Source: a bacterium (GTDB lineage: Bacteria; Auribacterota; UBA6266). Taken from it: a stretch of DNA of 58,040 nt. A program made the position numbers and the translations under genes. Position 1 is the stretch's first letter; each line of letters begins with the position of its first letter. Under the pieces are notes generated by a model. That model saw nothing but the letters and a program-made list of their open reading frames with translations. It was not told the DNA's origin and ran no database searches. Of the stretch, positions 30,591-36,785 are shown piece by piece. The stretch lies in contig JAQUNG010000001.1 of the NCBI GenBank assembly GCA_028717725.1, positions 1-58,040 of the forward strand. Reading direction: 5' to 3'.

Positions 30591-31593
30591 ATTAAGCGGA
30601 GATTTTATAATAGGTCCTGACAGGCCGGTGTTTTTTATAGCTGATATAGGGGCAAACCACAACGGAAGCCTGTTAAAAGCGAAAAAGCTGATTGATCTTG
30701 CGGCAAAAGCCGGTGTCAATGCCGTTAAGTTCCAATCTTACAGGGCTGATTATCTTATGAATCAAAAGTACCATCCCGAAGGTTATAAATTGATACGGAA
30801 GTATCAGTTCCCTATGGCTTGGAACGGCATATTAAAAAAATACAGCGAGAAAAAAGGTTTGCTGTTTTTAACTACTCCTTTTGACCTTGAAACGGTAGAT
30901 TACCTTGAAGGTCTGAATATTGCGTTCTATAAAATTGCTTCAAGTGATATAACTTTTTACCGCCTTATCGAAAAAATCGGGAAAACGGGAAAACCCGTTA
31001 TCATTTCTACAGGAGGGGCTGATATTAATGAGATAAAAAATGCAATAAGGATATTGAAGACAACCGGGAATAGAAAGATTATATTGCTCCATGCGATAGT
31101 AAACTACCCGTGCGATTATGATGAAGTTAACTTGTCTTTTATGCCTGTATTAGGGGAAAAATTCAAAGTTCCGTTCGGTTTGTCGGATCATACGCTCGGG
31201 ACGGAAGTAGCTGTTGCGGCTATCACCTACGGCGCTTCAGTTATAGAAAAGCATTTTACTGATAACAGGCACCGGAAGGGTCCTGACCATTTGCATTCGA
31301 TGGAACCTGATGAGTTCAGGAGCATGGTGATTTCAGCCGGCAATGTTCAAAAGGCTATCGGTAAACCATATAAGATAATAAACCGCTCGGAAAAAAGAAG
31401 GTTAAAAAAAGCCAGAAGAGCTTTTTATGCGGTAAAGGACATTTGCAAAGGAGAAATATTCAATGGCAATAATGTCCGTGAATTGAGGCCCAAAGGAGAA
31501 ATATCAGCGGCTCAAGCGAATATTGTATTCGGAAAGAAAGCAAAAAAGCCGATAAGCAATCTTGAAATGATTAGGAAGAAAAATATTTTATGA
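30577..31593 (+). CDS. pseI: Pseudaminic acid synthase (NeuB family, with SAF domain)
   Basis: FIIADIGANHNGS, KIASSD, GLSDHT and IEKHFT motifs plus a C-terminal SAF-like segment (FYAVKDICKGEIF). Pse specificity is inferred from neighbours. Confidence 0.8.
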   Translation: MKEIKLSGDFIIGPDRPVFFIADIGANHNGSLLKAKKLIDLAAKAGVNAVKFQSYRADYLMNQKYHPEGYKLIRKYQFPMAWNGILKKYSEKKGLLFLTTPFDLETVDYLEGLNIAFYKIASSDITFYRLIEKIGKTGKPVIISTGGADINEIKNAIRILKTTGNRKIILLHAIVNYPCDYDEVNLSFMPVLGEKFKVPFGLSDHTLGTEVAVAAITYGASVIEKHFTDNRHRKGPDHLHSMEPDEFRSMVISAGNVQKAIGKPYKIINRSEKRRLKKARRAFYAVKDICKGEIFNGNNVRELRPKGEISAAQANIVFGKKAKKPISNLEMIRKKNIL

Positions 31594-33038
31594 ATAAAAA
31601 AATCAAAGTTCTGGTTACCGCGGTAGGCGCTCCGCCGGGGAGAAATGTAGTGCGCGCGCTGAGAAACAAAAAGGAAATCAGTGTTATTGCTTCCGATGCG
31701 GATAACTTAGTCCCTGTCCTATACAATAAAAAGGAAGTCTTGAATTCATATATAATTCCGCCTGCGCGCGAAGAAAAAAAATATATTAAGTCTTTAAAAA
31801 AAATTATAGGGAAAGAAAATATCAGGGTGATAATGCCGTGTATAGAAGAAGAAATAAGCGTTTTATCGAGATACAGGCGGGATTTTCACAATATAGGGGC
31901 TGATATAATCTGCGCTGATTATGAGAAGGTGACCCGGCTTGCGGATAAAAAAAGGATGATAGAACAGGCTCTAAAGGCTGGAGTACCGACGCCTGATACT
32001 TTCGGAATTGACGATATCAGCAAAACAAATAAAAAGCTGCGTTTCCCGCTTATAATAAAACCCAGGAAAGGCCACGGAGCAAGGAACATATATATAATAA
32101 AGAACAAAAATGATATAGCTAAAATCCCGCCTCAATATTTTATTGATAAAAGAGCTTTTGTTGTCCAGGAATATATACCCGGTGGTACGGGAAGCATATT
32201 CCTTTGTGGGCTTCTCTACGGGAAAGATAATGTAATCAAGGCTGAATTCCTATCGCGGAGCATAAAAACTCTGTATGAATTCGGGGGTCCGGCTGTGTGT
32301 GGTGAACCTGTAAATGGTTTTAGAAGGATTAAAGATTATACTAAGAAACTGATATCGAGCGTCGGAGGATGGTACGGTCCTGTGAACGTAGAGTATAAAA
32401 TATCTTCGGAAGACGGGGTCCCATATCTTATAGAAGTAAATCCGCGGTTTTGGGGGTATGGTTATCTTGCGGTCGGCTGCGGAGTGAATTTTCCTTACCT
32501 TGCCGCTCTCGAATCGGCAGGCAGGAAAGTAAAGCCGGTCACTGAATACCGGACAGACCGGATCATTTTGAGAGAAACCATGGACACTGTTATCCCCAGA
32601 GGTCGATTAAAATTACCTGAGTGCGGGAAAATAGTTTTTGTATGCAATATTGAAAAAAAATGTGATATGAACGCGGGAAAACTAAAAAAACGCATTATGC
32701 AGACATGCGGTGAGGTATTTGTGTTTACAGGAAAAAAAGAACACTTAGGATCTTTGCCGTTTATATGCGGGGATAATGACAAGATCCGCTTCTATATTAA
32801 TCAGGCAGGCACCCGAGAGGAAAATCTTAAGGAAATAGGGCTTTATTATTTTGCCGGTTTGATTATTTATTTTGATTTGCCGGATTTGGATAAGACTCTT
32901 TGTGGTATAGAACGGCTGATAACCCTGTTTCTGAAGAAAAAATTGCAGTATTTTTCATTTTCCGGAAGCAGTTTGCGGATTATTAGAACTGATGTTCTCG
33001 GGGCAAAAGTTATACCCAGTAAAATTTGTCATTTATGA
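31590..33038 (+). CDS. ATP-grasp ligase with an extra C-terminal domain of unknown function
   Basis: FPLIIKPRKGHGARNIYII, FVVQEYIPGG and LIEVNPRFWG motifs in the first ~330 aa. The last ~150 aa are unassigned. Confidence 0.8.
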   Translation: MNKKIKVLVTAVGAPPGRNVVRALRNKKEISVIASDADNLVPVLYNKKEVLNSYIIPPAREEKKYIKSLKKIIGKENIRVIMPCIEEEISVLSRYRRDFHNIGADIICADYEKVTRLADKKRMIEQALKAGVPTPDTFGIDDISKTNKKLRFPLIIKPRKGHGARNIYIIKNKNDIAKIPPQYFIDKRAFVVQEYIPGGTGSIFLCGLLYGKDNVIKAEFLSRSIKTLYEFGGPAVCGEPVNGFRRIKDYTKKLISSVGGWYGPVNVEYKISSEDGVPYLIEVNPRFWGYGYLAVGCGVNFPYLAALESAGRKVKPVTEYRTDRIILRETMDTVIPRGRLKLPECGKIVFVCNIEKKCDMNAGKLKKRIMQTCGEVFVFTGKKEHLGSLPFICGDNDKIRFYINQAGTREENLKEIGLYYFAGLIIYFDLPDLDKTLCGIERLITLFLKKKLQYFSFSGSSLRIIRTDVLGAKVIPSKICHL

Positions 33039-35523: not shown

Positions 35524-36785
35524 TGAATAGAAAAAAGAAACTATTATTAGGTGTGGTCGCATCCCCGAGAGCTAAGCTTGCGTCGGCGGAATACAGTAAA
35601 TTACTGGATAAAATATCGGATTATCAGAAGATGTATGAGATGATTTACGAATATGCCGGTGAAAAAAAGATATCCAATACAGAAGGGCTGGTTCTGGCAA
35701 GCCTCTTTGGCGCAAAATCGGAGGATGTCGATGCAGAGGGAATAAATCTTAAAGATGTTTTTCAAACGGGAAAAATATCGAGAGAACAGTTAGCGGAAAA
35801 ACTGAATAAGTGTGAAGGCGTCATTATAGGGACGCCTGTTTATTTCGGGGACAGGTCATCATGGTTTGATTCTTTTGTTAGATTTATTAAAGATAACGGA
35901 ATCAACACCAAAGATAAGATATTCGGCGCGGTTTCGGTCGGCGCAAAAAGAAACGGAGGACAGGAGACCACGCTGATATTTGGTCTTCTGGATGCGCTTA
36001 ATAGGGGGTTTAATGTCGTTGGCAACGGTCCCCCGACCAGCCAATTCGGGGGAACAGGATGGGCAGGGGATATCGGGAAAATTCAAGATGATAATTTTGG
36101 ATTGGATACTTCCATGGGTCTGGGAAAGAGAGTAGGAAGATATTTTGAGATAGCGGCCTCTGTCCAGACACCCTTAAATGAACTGAAAATAGGGATTCTG
36201 CATTCCGGTTTTGCGTCCGGGAGCGAGGAAATTAAAAAACTGGTTTCAATGATAGAGGAAAAGGGAGCGAAGACGGACATCCTTAATATAGATGACCTTA
36301 AAATAAAACCTTGCCTGGGTTGCCCTATATGCCCGAAAGAACAGGGCATGGAATATGGATGTGTGATAAAAGACGATATGATCAAAGTGAAAAATTTGTC
36401 AGTATCTGTGGATGGTCTGATATTTATGTTGTATAAGGGAAAGAAAGAGAATGACCAGTATCAATTGTTTCTTGAGAGGACCCGTTTTATTCGGCGCGAT
36501 AATTTTATCTTAAGCGATATTCCCTTTGGAGCCTATTATTCAGAAAAAGATTTTGGGGGCGGCCAGTATACGACAAGAATGTTTACATCTTTTCTCAGGC
36601 ATAATATGTATATTGTCAGCCCTCTGGTACAGAGTATAAGCATAGAAAACGAGGAAATTCTTATCGGCGATCCCTCATTGTTGTGCGATAATCTTCTTAG
36701 AATTGCTTCAAAATCAAAAACTGCCAGAAATATATCGAAGAAAAAATACATATATGAAGATATTGGATATGGTAAGAAAAGATAA
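35523..36785 (+). CDS. Flavodoxin-fold NAD(P)H-dependent FMN reductase-like protein with an extended C-terminal half
   Basis: LLGVVASPR ... CEGVIIGTPVYFGDRSSWFDSFVRF (FMN_red/iron-sulfur flavoprotein-like). The second half contains CLGCPICP. Confidence 0.6.
   Translation: MNRKKKLLLGVVASPRAKLASAEYSKLLDKISDYQKMYEMIYEYAGEKKISNTEGLVLASLFGAKSEDVDAEGINLKDVFQTGKISREQLAEKLNKCEGVIIGTPVYFGDRSSWFDSFVRFIKDNGINTKDKIFGAVSVGAKRNGGQETTLIFGLLDALNRGFNVVGNGPPTSQFGGTGWAGDIGKIQDDNFGLDTSMGLGKRVGRYFEIAASVQTPLNELKIGILHSGFASGSEEIKKLVSMIEEKGAKTDILNIDDLKIKPCLGCPICPKEQGMEYGCVIKDDMIKVKNLSVSVDGLIFMLYKGKKENDQYQLFLERTRFIRRDNFILSDIPFGAYYSEKDFGGGQYTTRMFTSFLRHNMYIVSPLVQSISIENEEILIGDPSLLCDNLLRIASKSKTARNISKKKYIYEDIGYGKKR

Follow-up and report, generated by a model that had tools for sequence, protein, structure and literature searches.

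The window, the 58,040-nucleotide stretch of DNA analyzed here, carries at 31590-36785 four plus-strand open reading frames (ORFs) with overlapping starts and stops, located directly 3' of a gene for a NeuB-family synthase. These genes and their surroundings are as follows.

18714..19700, + strand: PseB, UDP-GlcNAc 4,6-dehydratase (inverting); NCBIfam TIGR03589, 503 bits (above the cut-off of 408); Pfam Polysacc_synt_2, 341 bits
19712..20869, + strand: PseC aminotransferase; NCBIfam TIGR03588, 500 bits (above the cut-off of 423)
22754..23518, + strand: CMP-nonulosonate synthetase-like cytidylyltransferase, divergent; Pfam CTP_transf_3, 89 bits
23515..26412, + strand: GNAT (weakly PseH-like), GFO/IDH/MocA oxidoreductase and second DegT aminotransferase; Pfam/NCBIfam
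29508..30590, + strand: PseG-like GT-B hydrolase, divergent; TIGR03590, 90 bits (below the cut-off of 153.6)
30577..31593, + strand: NeuB-family nonulosonate synthase ("pseI"); Pfam NeuB, 264 bits, plus SAF
31590..33038, + strand: ATP-grasp carboxylate-amine ligase, 482 aa; Pfam PylC-like_N and ATP-grasp_3
33026/33035-34456, + strand: all-beta propeller protein, 476 aa from TTG or 473 aa from ATG
34453..35523, + strand: enolase-superfamily enzyme of the MLE subgroup, 356 aa; Pfam MR_MLE_C, 81 bits
35523..36785, + strand: two-domain flavodoxin-fold protein, 420 aa; Pfam FMN_red, 48.8 bits
36844..38349, + strand: Wzx-type flippase; Pfam Polysacc_synt; downstream edge of an exchangeable segment (see below)

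The setting is most likely a pseudaminic acid (Pse)-type nonulosonate pathway within an LPS/O-antigen region. The equivalog cut-offs were passed by PseB and PseC and missed by the PseH-like, PseG, PseI and PseF candidates. The GNAT scored 62 against the PseH model (cut-off, 93), and the cytidylyltransferase gave no PseF equivalog match, with only weak Kdo-cytidylyltransferase matches in NCBIfam. The synthase was under both NCBIfam cut-offs, with 291 for PseI (cut-off, 340) and 314 for NeuB (cut-off, 400). Therefore, the name pseI, given to it in an earlier reading of the letters alone (the sequence-only reading), is a contextual call, backed by PseB and PseC upstream. PseC installs the 4-amino group that later becomes N7 of Pse, and the equivalog pattern would fit a pathway diverging after PseC, at the N-acylation step. 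The set of GNAT, oxidoreductase and DegT genes recurs in NeuB-type loci (L059, L061, L067, L060, L073 and L016).

The sequence-only reading had taken the four genes to be coupled, and the ORF coordinates bear this out. ATGA overlaps were found at 31590-31593, 33035-33038 and 34453-34456, and the enolase/flavoprotein junction is a 1-nt overlap at 35523. Promoter-like sites inside the region were not enriched (44, versus 47.5 in shuffled sequence), and terminator-like sites showed no excess (20 versus 17.7). The four families (ATP-grasp, propeller, MR_MLE and FMN_red) were joint in the window and L001; in L010, L014, L015 and L022; in L012, L029 and L040; in L016 (Omnitrophota) and L020 (Desulfobacteraceae); and in L059, L061, L067, L060 and L073. 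Protein identities across these lineages were only 25 to 48%. Co-occurrence with Pse-type genes had been set as a check beforehand, and the four families were found together in at least 8 independent lineages; their partners in several phyla were PseB/PseC/PseG-like/NeuB/cytidylyltransferase genes. Gene fusions were also found. L044 encodes an ATP-grasp::MR_MLE fusion of 713 aa and a cytidylyltransferase::propeller::NeuB fusion of 1112 aa, and a cytidylyltransferase::propeller fusion is present in L012 and L029. The grouping is thus not a matter of chance, since the families recur jointly in many unrelated contigs. The four genes form a conserved, so far uncharacterized module, and the data support one functional unit with a link to nonulosonate synthesis. 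All organisms carrying the module are uncultured.

The tie to Pse, upheld by co-occurrence and fusions, is nevertheless not specific. The flavoprotein gene was flanked on both sides by 2.5 kb or more in 26 metagenomic loci; of these, 21 had an ATP-grasp, 18 the enolase member, 15 a DegT aminotransferase and 6 NeuB. The core is a trio of the ATP-grasp, the four-Cys Fe-S flavoprotein and, usually, the enolase enzyme, which also occurs in 4,6-dehydratase/DegT amino-sugar O-antigen clusters without NeuB. This three-gene core has a wide distribution among the amino-sugar clusters of uncultured bacteria. The propeller, on the other hand, was confined to loci with NeuB; of the 80 loci fetched, 7 carried NeuB, and each of these had the propeller. 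In L012/L029 and in L014/L015/L022, the window's GNAT had no detected homologue, and no acyltransferase was found among the neighboring genes scanned or Pfam-called there. PseH might be encoded elsewhere in genomes that seem to lack it.

The ATP-grasp protein has a catalytic core (residues ~1 to 340) and a C-terminal alpha/beta extension (~347 to 470) limited to close relatives. Foldseek matches to its AF2 model (pLDDT, 88.8) were 2PN1, the L-amino-acid ligases RizA/BL00235/YwfE, PurK and PylC; the conserved residues include K157, E268, N284 and R286. A carbamoyl-phosphate or purine enzyme was rejected because all NCBIfam scores were far under the cut-off, and the assignment as an ATP-grasp ligase stands, with L-amino-acid ligases and PylC among the structural neighbors. 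The gene adjoins that of NeuB in nearly all related loci.

The 473-aa protein had been listed as an unknown; indeed, it had no match in Pfam or NCBIfam and no transmembrane segment. The modeling suggests a cytoplasmic beta-propeller of the BNR/sialidase-like type, into which a galactose-binding-like beta-sandwich is inserted (~aa 265-400). The AF2 model was all-beta, of low confidence (pLDDT, 58), and the Foldseek matches, at low TM-score, were the pseudaminidase 2W38, sialidases and GH32/43. A profile search gave about 25 full-length relatives, with the central domain matching PF21254. The signature motif is WHSWRxPGxxPF. When the invariant residues of the family were checked, the canonical sialidase catalytic set was not identified.

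In the enolase-superfamily enzyme, the full KxK/D/E/D/K set claimed earlier was confirmed: K145-x-K147, D175, E204, D229 and K251/K253 aligned with YkfB and were invariant in 14 family members. The best single-sequence PDB match was YkfB itself, an L-Ala-D/L-Glu epimerase (3e-28), with further dipeptide epimerases next; overall, the best PDB relatives were 2P88 (6e-50 in a family-profile search) and 1JPM. The nearest characterized relative is the N-succinyl-Arg/Lys racemase BC0371 (PDB 2P88). An OSBS/menaquinone identity was rejected, as the PDB relatives are this racemase and dipeptide epimerases and no men genes occurred in any of the genomic contexts. The family has two signatures, GNGV[AS]T and AGEMNG[FY]LK. 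The latter takes the place of the DxD motif, with which L-Ala-D/L-Glu-type epimerases bind the ammonium group of the dipeptide and which is absent family-wide; the Arg24 equivalent is Ala. Of the epimerase/racemase chemistry put forward earlier, the general reaction is retained, given the intact catalytic set and the nearest relative, but the dipeptide-epimerase motif is missing. A carboxylate is its predicted substrate, and the predicted activity is that of a racemase/epimerase or, alternatively, of a beta-eliminating lyase. Enolase-superfamily chemistry requires a free carboxylate beside the abstracted proton. An amino acid linked to a Pse amine through its alpha-carboxyl could not be epimerized because no free carboxylate would be left; hence, epimerization would have to precede ligation or act on a substituent keeping a free carboxylate.

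The flavoprotein had been described as flavodoxin-fold and reductase-like. The fold was correct, but the protein has two domains, the N-terminal half being WrbA/FMN_red-like and the C-terminal half Isf-like (PDB matches, WrbA over aa 91-205 and 7D38 over aa 228-302), and an invariant four-Cys motif, C264-x2-C267-x2-C270-x9-C280. Conservation across 75 non-redundant relatives was 100% for the four Cys and likewise for the motifs SxR, PVYFGDRS and GAKRNGGQETT. Judging from these features, an Fe-S flavoprotein reductase is the probable identity. The protein is most tightly associated with the ATP-grasp and not with the enolase member, which was absent from L038, L050, L056 and L088, where the flavoprotein was paired with the ATP-grasp.

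A sister genome, L008, offered a view of what the ligase may attach. Its DNA aligns collinearly with that of the window (84% identity) as far as about 32463, and collinearity returns at 36849. In the interval, L008 has an ATP-grasp 48% identical to that of the window and a cassette encoding cysteate synthase (459 bits; cut-off, 325), sulfopyruvate decarboxylase (alpha and beta) and an aldehyde dehydrogenase resembling SafD. The predicted product of this cassette is a carboxylic acid, sulfoacetate, for which an amine acceptor is required; because the cassette ends in an aldehyde dehydrogenase, it would deliver an acid and not an amine. Judged by gene content, the acids supplied by the L008 and L011 cassettes are expected to be sulfonated ones rather than amino acids. 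Rheinheimera has a homologous ATP-grasp gene beside that of NeuB, along with ComA/ComB (sulfolactate makers). The swap suggests a cassette that supplies an acid for the ligase to attach, and the divergence of the ATP-grasp could reflect a distant donor rather than a changed specificity.

From the observed gene identities, catalytic residues, conservation, co-occurrence, fusions and cassette swap, we infer, with a probability of roughly 45%, that the module has an accessory tailoring role, decorating a Pse-type surface sugar with an unusual acyl group other than acetyl. The ATP-grasp would join a small carboxylic acid, probably amino-acid-derived or dicarboxylic, to a sugar amino group by an amide bond, and so replace or supplement acetylation by PseH. 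The acceptor would most simply be the PseC-installed amine (the future N7); it could be another one, because the window also has the weakly PseH-like GNAT and the second oxidoreductase/aminotransferase pair. The enolase enzyme, as the direct partner of the ligase, would abstract a proton beside a free carboxylate group that the acid carries. Inversion of a stereocenter, as in N-acyl-amino-acid racemases, would be the most likely outcome, with beta-elimination less likely; inversion may come before ligation or act on a ligated substituent retaining a free carboxylate. The flavoprotein would supply a reduction within the same acyl-group chemistry. The propeller would be an add-on only for nonulosonate acceptors, probably binding or handling the sugar between its synthesis and CMP activation. 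The main tailoring model contains no step requiring a reductase.

The sequence-only reading had proposed a D-aminoacyl decoration. An amide decoration of Pse is supported; its D-aminoacyl identity is one possibility among several. A scheme in which the Pse amine receives an L-amino acid or dipeptide from the ATP-grasp and the enolase enzyme then epimerizes this substituent, giving D-aminoacyl or peptidyl Pse, would agree with YkfB and the dipeptide epimerases as top single-sequence matches, with the likeness of the ATP-grasp to L-amino-acid ligases and with the fusion coupling both enzymes. D-alanyl, N-acetyl-D-alanyl and N-methyl-glutamyl legionaminic acids are known glycan components. We consider this sequence of steps unlikely, however. 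DxD is lacking throughout the family and Arg24 is replaced; the missing free carboxylate would demand side-chain-linked Asp/Glu or epimerization before ligation; the flavoprotein and propeller would have no job; and the swapped cassettes of L008 and L011 are for sulfonated acids, not amino acids.

The amide could also run the other way, with the ATP-grasp coupling a sugar carboxylate (nonulosonate C1, or a uronic or lactyl group in non-NeuB loci) to the amine of an amino acid, so that the alpha-carboxylate of the product stays free and the enolase enzyme inverts an N-acyl amino acid. This would be the best substrate fit to the nearest characterized relatives, the N-succinyl/N-acyl-amino-acid racemases, and C. 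jejuni Cj1438 is an ATP-grasp amidating capsule glucuronate. The fusion order, ATP-grasp then MR_MLE, is consistent with it, and in non-NeuB loci, Asn-synthase-like amidotransferases encoded two genes 5' of the ATP-grasp hint at a free carboxylate that undergoes amidation later; MurD2/MurL is a precedent for ligation followed by epimerization (PMC5808125). It is nonetheless doubtful, since the non-NeuB loci have amine-making genes (4,6-dehydratase and DegT) and no carboxylate-forming gene was seen there, the L008 cassette would end in an acid, and a C1-amidated nonulosonate is a poor substrate for CMP activation.

Alternatively, the enolase enzyme may catalyze a beta-elimination of ammonia or water from a carboxylate substrate, as do methylaspartase and OSBS, and the flavoprotein may reduce the resulting 2-enoate, giving a deaminated or deoxygenated acyl group before or after ligation by the ATP-grasp. 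Each catalytic protein would then have a role, and the invariant four-Cys motif and FMN site are as in a low-potential reductase. Other enolase-family members directly adjoin glutamate mutase genes without methylaspartase, and one such locus also encodes a fumarate-reductase-like flavoprotein. Yet, 5 of the 26 well-covered loci pair the flavoprotein with the ATP-grasp without the enolase member, and the flavoprotein is therefore independent of an enolase-made enoate. Both catalytic lysines are kept, as is typical of 1,1-proton-transfer enzymes, and we give this route a low probability. Least probable is remodeling of the nonulosonate skeleton (for example, a 2,3-ene made by the propeller, reduction by the flavoprotein and C2 epimerization by the enolase enzyme), which the propeller fusions to cytidylyltransferase and NeuB and the weak pseudaminidase and sialidase fold matches would favor but the trio in clusters without any nonulosonate genes and the lack of identified sialidase catalytic residues contradict, or a set of unrelated housekeeping genes, a coincidence excluded by repeated co-occurrence and fusions.

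The tailoring model can be compared with known systems. The PseH step and the non-acetyl variants of Pse and legionaminic acid (Leg) share the PseB, PseC, PseG-like, NeuB and cytidylyltransferase context, and the predicted end product, a nonulosonate amine with a non-acetyl substituent, resembles those variants. Known non-acetyl N-acyl groups on Pse/Leg are 3-hydroxybutanoyl, glyceroyl, acetimidoyl, D-alanyl and N-methyl-glutamyl. PseH is an acetyl-CoA-dependent GNAT, whereas the candidate acylating enzyme of the module is an ATP-dependent ATP-grasp, accompanied by the enolase-family, Fe-S flavoprotein and propeller proteins; in the literature searched, none of these was described for any Pse/Leg variant. 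In C. difficile type B flagellin, the ATP-grasp CDR20291_0245 is genetically needed for a sulfonated peptidylamido sugar (PMC5207246). By analogy, both systems would have a glycan-cluster ATP-grasp (annotated as carbamoyl-phosphate-synthetase-like in C. difficile) and an amide-linked substituent on an amino sugar, and the gene content of the L008 and L011 cassettes suggests a parallel to the sulfonated substituent. In C. difficile, however, the sugar is not a nonulosonate, the partners are FemAB-like and ornithine-cyclodeaminase-like proteins, and there is no enolase-family enzyme, flavoprotein or propeller.

The enolase enzyme shares its fold, the KxK/D/E/D/K set and its best sequence and profile matches with BC0371 (2P88) and YkfB/YcjG of the MLE subgroup, and the beta8 segment VELTGPLK of 2P88 aligns with AGEMNGFLK. 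It differs from them in identity (~25-28%), in the loss of DxD, in its own signatures and in context, which is glycan clusters or glutamate mutase/TctABC loci versus amino-acid salvage and murein-peptide recycling. In Xanthomonas, MurD2 ligates L-Glu to UDP-MurNAc-L-Ala and MurL then epimerizes the terminal residue (PMC5808125). The analogy would lie in an ATP-dependent ligase adding an L-building block to a nucleotide-sugar derivative, which a dedicated epimerase inverts afterwards; MurD2, however, is a Mur ligase, MurL is outside the enolase superfamily, and the target is peptidoglycan, not LPS. Finally, the flavoprotein resembles Isf and WrbA-type NAD(P)H:quinone oxidoreductases in its flavodoxin-like fold, its FMN_red signatures and a compact Cys motif like the 4Fe-4S site of Isf. 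Unlike these proteins, it belongs to a tandem two-domain type of 390-560 aa with a longer spacing to the fourth Cys, and it appears to be obligately linked to the ATP-grasp in sugar clusters.

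The four genes that follow the NeuB-family synthase gene are coupled, as the sequence-only reading had proposed. All four ORFs were found exactly where that reading had placed them, and their junctions are ATGA-type overlaps:

31590-33038, + strand, ATP-grasp ligase (482 aa)
33035-34456, + strand, 473-aa protein
34453-35523, + strand, enolase-superfamily member
35523-36785, + strand, flavoprotein (420 aa)

Judging from the overlap at 33035-33038, the second gene starts with the ATG at 33035, which yields the length of 473 aa given by the earlier reading. No excess of promoter-like or terminator-like sites was found in the module. 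The window is an LPS/surface-glycan region whose genes lie on one strand. Every long ORF is on the + strand, the cumulative GC skew climbs steadily, and no Rfam family reached its gathering score across positions 1-58040. Genes for a Kdo transferase, LpxK, a lipid A acyltransferase and a heptosyltransferase lie at 2.4-9.8 kb, and many GT2/GT4/GT-C transferases and a Wzx flippase are found further along.

The gene order from 18.7 kb begins with PseB, PseC, a 618-aa protein, a CTP_transf_3 cytidylyltransferase and a weakly PseH-like GNAT. It continues with a GFO/IDH/MocA oxidoreductase, a second DegT aminotransferase, a PF04060 Fe-S protein, an SDR and a soluble ABC-type ATPase, and ends with a CobW/HypB-like GTPase, a divergent PseG and the NeuB-family synthase, next to which stands the module. 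PseB (503 bits against an NCBIfam cut-off of 408) and PseC (500 against 423) scored above the equivalog threshold. The PseH-like GNAT (62 against 93) and PseG (90 against 153.6) fell below theirs, and the synthase was under both the PseI (291 against 340) and the NeuB (314 against 400) cut-offs. The PseF model had no match in the window, the cytidylyltransferase being recognised by Pfam CTP_transf_3 alone. The pseudaminic acid (Pse) pathway is thus canonical in its early steps and divergent in its late ones.

Several other features of the region were recorded:

26409-29548, + strand, inside the Pse cluster, PF04060 "putative Fe-S cluster" protein (213 aa), SDR, ABC-type ATPase (252 aa) and CobW/HypB-like GTPase (237 aa)
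20876-22732, + strand, 618-aa soluble protein between PseC and the cytidylyltransferase
16774-18282, 46632-48026 and 137-1153, + strand, two B12-binding radical SAM enzymes and one radical SAM/SPASM enzyme
12210-16073, 39176-40933 and 48023-52347, + strand, four PMT_2/ArnT-like and one YfhO GT-C-type membrane glycosyltransferases, an unusually large number
43656-44606, + strand, LPG_synthase_TM protein
42073-43659, + strand, 528-aa protein without a family
3905-6546, + strand, PTS EIIA-CBS protein, CitMHS-family transporter and second EIIA domain protein, between the Kdo transferase and lpxK

The set at 26409-29548 looks like metal- or cluster-insertion genes without an obvious client. It is kept in the homologous locus L001 and in the sister genome L008, and its GTPase also adjoins NeuB in a further locus, L003. 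The 618-aa protein was seen only in the L008 lineage and had no match in Pfam, NCBIfam or the PDB. The radical SAM enzymes might methylate the polysaccharide at carbon or tailor it by other radical chemistry.

Close relatives were rare for each of the three proteins searched directly, namely the ATP-grasp ligase, the 473-aa protein and the enolase-superfamily member. Homologous loci were gathered by looking up the contigs of relatives and by scanning one genome per GTDB species with an ATP-grasp pattern, and the ORFs of all loci were labelled by phmmer against the window proteins. These loci came from a "bacterium" MAG (fully syntenic, with proteins 79-84% identical), from "Parcubacteria"-labelled MAGs, and from Omnitrophota, Nitrospirae, Desulfobacteraceae, Bdellovibrionales and Rheinheimera. 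All four module genes were found with PseB, PseC, PseG-like, NeuB and cytidylyltransferase genes in L001, L010/L014/L015, L012, L016 and L020, in varying gene orders and at protein identities of 25-48%. A metagenome scan with flavoprotein motifs yielded at least 274 relatives. Retrieval of 80 of their loci added L022, L029, L059/L061/L067, L060 and L073 as four-gene loci. No cultured carrier of the full module was found among the contig look-ups, the GTDB species genomes and the metagenomic loci. Several module loci (L017:7967-9988, L016:6947-8314 and L020:6863-9122) add a class-III, GSA-aminomutase-like aminotransferase, joined in L017 and L020 by an aldo/keto reductase; at the corresponding place the window has the GFO oxidoreductase and the second DegT aminotransferase. 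The extra aminotransferases suggest an additional amino group on the sugar.

Gene fusions are decisive for a functional linkage of the joined proteins. In the metagenomic locus L044 (positions 1430-8277), the ATP-grasp ligase is fused to the enolase-superfamily member (713 aa) and the cytidylyltransferase is fused to the 473-aa family and then to NeuB (1112 aa), with the flavoprotein following. A cytidylyltransferase::propeller fusion, the propeller being the homologue of the 473-aa protein, was also found in L012 and L029, and L017 has a cytidylyltransferase::class-III aminotransferase fusion. Near the L044 fusions lies a gene for a 1015-aa tandem double B12-radical-SAM protein.

We then counted partner genes in the metagenomic loci with sufficient flanking sequence.

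Genes found with the flavoprotein gene in 26 metagenomic loci having at least 2.5 kb on either side of it
ATP-grasp ligase: 21 of 26
Enolase-superfamily member: 18 of 26
All three (ATP-grasp ligase, enolase-superfamily member and flavoprotein): 16 of 26
DegT-type aminotransferase: 15 of 26
NeuB: 6 of 26

In another five of the 26 loci, a shorter flavoprotein of about 390 aa occurred with the ATP-grasp ligase and without the enolase-superfamily member. Among the 80 loci, the propeller was present in all seven that bear NeuB, as well as in the L044 fusion, and was missing from the remaining ones. The module is therefore a trio (ATP-grasp ligase, enolase-superfamily member and flavoprotein) plus the propeller as a putative adaptor. 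We infer that the propeller is required only with nonulosonates; the fusions put it between the synthase and the cytidylyltransferase, where it may bind, scaffold or catalyse. The loci lacking NeuB are O-antigen-type clusters with a 4,6-dehydratase-like SDR, a DegT aminotransferase, an Asn-synthase-like amidotransferase, Wzt and glycosyltransferases. Their ATP-grasp ligases belong to another subfamily, scoring 30-140 bits against the window protein compared with 370-670 bits for those of NeuB loci, and the small proteins encoded upstream of them had no match in Pfam or the PDB.

The 473-aa protein itself had no family match and no transmembrane segment, and a profile search of 1.8 billion representatives gave about 25 full-length relatives. 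Its central ~135 residues match PF21254, a galactose-binding-like beta-sandwich common in large surface proteins. For the rest, there are weak, fold-level hints of a BNR-like propeller. The relatives match BNR_2 under the cut-off (23-26 against 31.4), and Foldseek with a low-confidence model (pLDDT 58) returned the pseudaminidase 2W38 and sialidases at TM-scores of 0.29-0.46, together with GH32/43 enzymes. GH33 sialidases are six-bladed propellers with Asp-boxes, an Arg triad and a nucleophile pair of Tyr and Glu. The family here has the signature WHSWRxPGxxPF and invariant Y43, Y79, N81, H98, R101, Y145, R352 and R442, among which no clear sialidase-type Arg triad was found.

The protein encoded at 31590-33038 is predicted by fold and conserved residues to be an ATP-grasp carboxylate-amine ligase. 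It matches Pfam PylC-like_N and ATP-grasp_3, and its AF2 model is confident (pLDDT 88.8). The closest structure by Foldseek was the uncharacterised 2PN1 (E value, 4e-21), followed by the L-amino-acid ligases RizA (1e-17), BL00235 and YwfE, and by PurK, biotin carboxylases and PylC. Residues K157, E268, N284 and R286 are conserved and correspond to the Lys, the Mg ligands and the Arg of the E.NPR motif type. Residues ~347-470 form an additional alpha/beta domain, which is missing from many orthologues and had no sequence match in the PDB. A carbamoyl-phosphate synthetase was rejected, with 19-20 bits for the large-subunit models against cut-offs of 599-1027, 139 against 218 for the "CPS-like" PRK12767, and a single rather than duplicated ATP-grasp unit; PurK/PurT and the other purine models were likewise all far under cut-off.

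In the flavoprotein, the N-terminal half is WrbA/FMN_red-like (FMN_red, 48.8 against 24), and another flavodoxin-like domain, which carries a C-x2-C-x2-C-x9-C motif, makes up the C-terminal half. Its cysteines C264, C267, C270 and C280 are 100% conserved in 75 nonredundant relatives, as are SxR, PVYFGDRS and GAKRNGGQETT. We read it as a predicted Isf-like Fe-S flavoprotein with putative cofactors; its fourth Cys is spaced differently from that of Isf. A tblastn search with it against plasmids gave no match.

The protein encoded at 34453-35523 belongs to the MLE subgroup of the enolase superfamily, judging from its Pfam match (MR_MLE_C, 81 against 29.4) and its active-site residues. K145-x-K147, D175, E204, D229 and K251/K253 align with K160/K162, D191, E219, D244 and K268 of YkfB, and this KxK/D/E/D/K set is invariant in 14 family members. 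In the subgroup, KxK ends beta2, the three metal ligands lie on beta3-5, and the second catalytic Lys ends beta6. With the single sequence, the top PDB matches were the L-Ala-D/L-Glu epimerase YkfB (3e-28) and Bacillus cereus 2P88. With the family profile, 2P88 (N-succinyl-Arg/Lys racemase, BC0371) came first at 6e-50 over the full length, with the beta8 Glu aligned; NAAAR structures scored 1e-25, at a low sequence identity to N-acyl amino acid racemases. Dipeptide epimerases have a DxD motif at the end of beta8 that binds the N-terminal ammonium of the dipeptide. In all 14 aligned members, this region reads AGEMNG[FY]LK, and the Asp ahead of it in the window protein is not conserved. In addition, Arg24 of YkfB is replaced by Ala24, and the HMMER alignments to YkfB end short of beta8. 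An assignment to the L-Ala-D/L-Glu dipeptide epimerases was rejected because the DxD motif is missing. An o-succinylbenzoate synthase (OSBS; MenC) was also rejected, since the best models gave 79-88 bits against cut-offs of 130-259 and OSBS structures ranked far under racemases/epimerases; no men gene was found in any of about 100 loci. Stereo-inversion is favoured by the retention of both lysines and by the nearest relatives, which are N-acyl-amino-acid racemases.

The AGEMNG[FY]LK branch has 1,067 relatives, and the pairwise identities did not split its glycan-linked members from others. For the broader family (33-40% identity), four contexts were examined, all of them nonglycan: three glutamate mutase/TctABC loci (L005, L102 and L103) and one TctAC/CoA-ligase locus (L007). 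In the former three, the AGEMNG[FY]LK members directly adjoin glutamate mutase (mutS/mutL/mutE), a LUD-domain protein and TctABC transporters, with no methylaspartase found, and L103 also carries a fumarate-reductase-like flavoprotein. Dicarboxylic amino acids of the methylaspartate type are possible substrates of the family. An alternative to stereo-inversion is a lyase-plus-enoate-reductase route, with the enolase-superfamily member as the lyase and the flavoprotein reducing the enoate. The proximity of family members to glutamate mutase where methylaspartase is absent favours it; the two retained lysines and the racemase relatives speak for inversion.

What the genes next to the ATP-grasp ligase supply may be exchangeable. 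The sister genome L008 aligns collinearly with the window (84% DNA identity) over 21594 to ~32463 and then from 36849 onwards, and its ATP-grasp ligase is 48% identical to that of the window over the whole length. The segment that stands in for window ~32.4-36.8 kb (L008:10001-15128; synteny with window 21594-42997) includes a cysteate synthase (459 against 325), a sulfopyruvate decarboxylase (alpha, 159 against 148; beta, under its cut-off at 193 against 221.5) and an aldehyde dehydrogenase with about equal scores for the SafD (sulfoacetaldehyde dehydrogenase) and lactaldehyde dehydrogenase models. Together with a housekeeping transaminase, this set would make sulfoacetate. Literature searches found no paper on a sulfoacetyl or sulfoacetamido glycan. 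In Rheinheimera maricola (L011/L018), an ATP-grasp ligase of 37% identity adjoins NeuB in a flagellin glycosylation island that also holds the sulfolactate-forming ComA/ComB, an AMP-binding::Antibiotic_NAT fusion, Maf, PseB, PseC and flagellin; this cultured organism is suited to the study of the ATP-grasp family. Because of the L008 swap and ComA/ComB, the genes after the ATP-grasp gene look like exchangeable acid-supply cassettes, the product of which the ligase seems to join to an amine. A crossover in NeuB and Wzx, however, would swap the ATP-grasp gene whatever its specificity.

We propose that the ATP-grasp ligase would N-acylate a sugar amine. Such a role is suggested because the pathway is canonical for PseB and PseC but divergent in each enzyme after them, because several module loci have no detectable homologue of the window GNAT and no acyltransferase among the scanned neighbours, and because the general partner of the trio is an aminotransferase. 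The enolase-superfamily member would invert a stereocentre of the acyl acid. Since established enolase-superfamily chemistry requires a free carboxylate, the enzyme's substrate would be either the acid not yet ligated or a ligated group with a carboxylate still free, for example Asp/Glu linked through the side chain or a different dicarboxylate. The Asn-synthase-like genes of the loci without NeuB hint at a free carboxylate that is amidated later. The sequence-only reading had envisaged a D-aminoacyl Pse. Its core, that a conserved module decorates Pse through an amide, survived the tests set for its refutation: the genes co-occur with Pse genes across phyla, the enolase-superfamily member is distinct from menaquinone enzymes, and the ATP-grasp ligase is distinct from carbamoyl-phosphate and purine enzymes. 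The D-aminoacyl/dipeptide-epimerase part is less likely, since it misses one defining feature, the DxD motif, and leaves two of the four proteins unexplained; the earlier interpretation is thus supported in part. Our tentative reading, to which we give a probability of roughly 0.35, is that the trio is a previously unrecognised, widespread set that builds unusual acyl groups (perhaps D-configured, dicarboxylic or reduced) and attaches them to surface-sugar amines, with the propeller adapting it to nonulosonic acids. If so, the Pse derivative encoded in the window would bear a previously unobserved N-acyl group, and the family would account for the making of many amino-acid-acylated O-antigen sugars.

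Nonulosonic acids and N-acylated amino sugars shape the recognition of bacterial surfaces by phages, immune systems and lectins, and we know of no enzymes for the installation of most of their non-acetyl N-acyl groups. The compact, conserved gene set has a testable division of labour and is directly testable in vitro; natural fusions reveal its working partners, and a natural cassette swap reveals the exchangeable unit. The enolase-superfamily branch and the tandem Fe-S flavoprotein family are both large and without assigned function, and assigning either would bear on the members beside glutamate mutase. In uncultured phyla, among them Omnitrophota, Nitrospirota and Desulfobacterota, the trio is also a genomic marker for surface glycans of unusual chemistry.

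The chemistry of non-acetyl N-acyl nonulosonates and of amino-acid-acylated amino sugars is well known. In full-text searches, no paper connected Pse/Leg or O-antigen clusters with an enolase-superfamily enzyme or with this gene set, and literature searches pairing such clusters with ATP-grasp enzymes found the set nowhere described. Taken with two precedents, this marks the proposed N-acyl tailoring of glycans as the work of an undescribed enzyme set: Clostridioides difficile offers a genetic precedent for an ATP-grasp enzyme in an amide-linked sugar substituent (PMC5207246), and MurD2/MurL offers one for ligation followed by epimerisation (PMC5808125).
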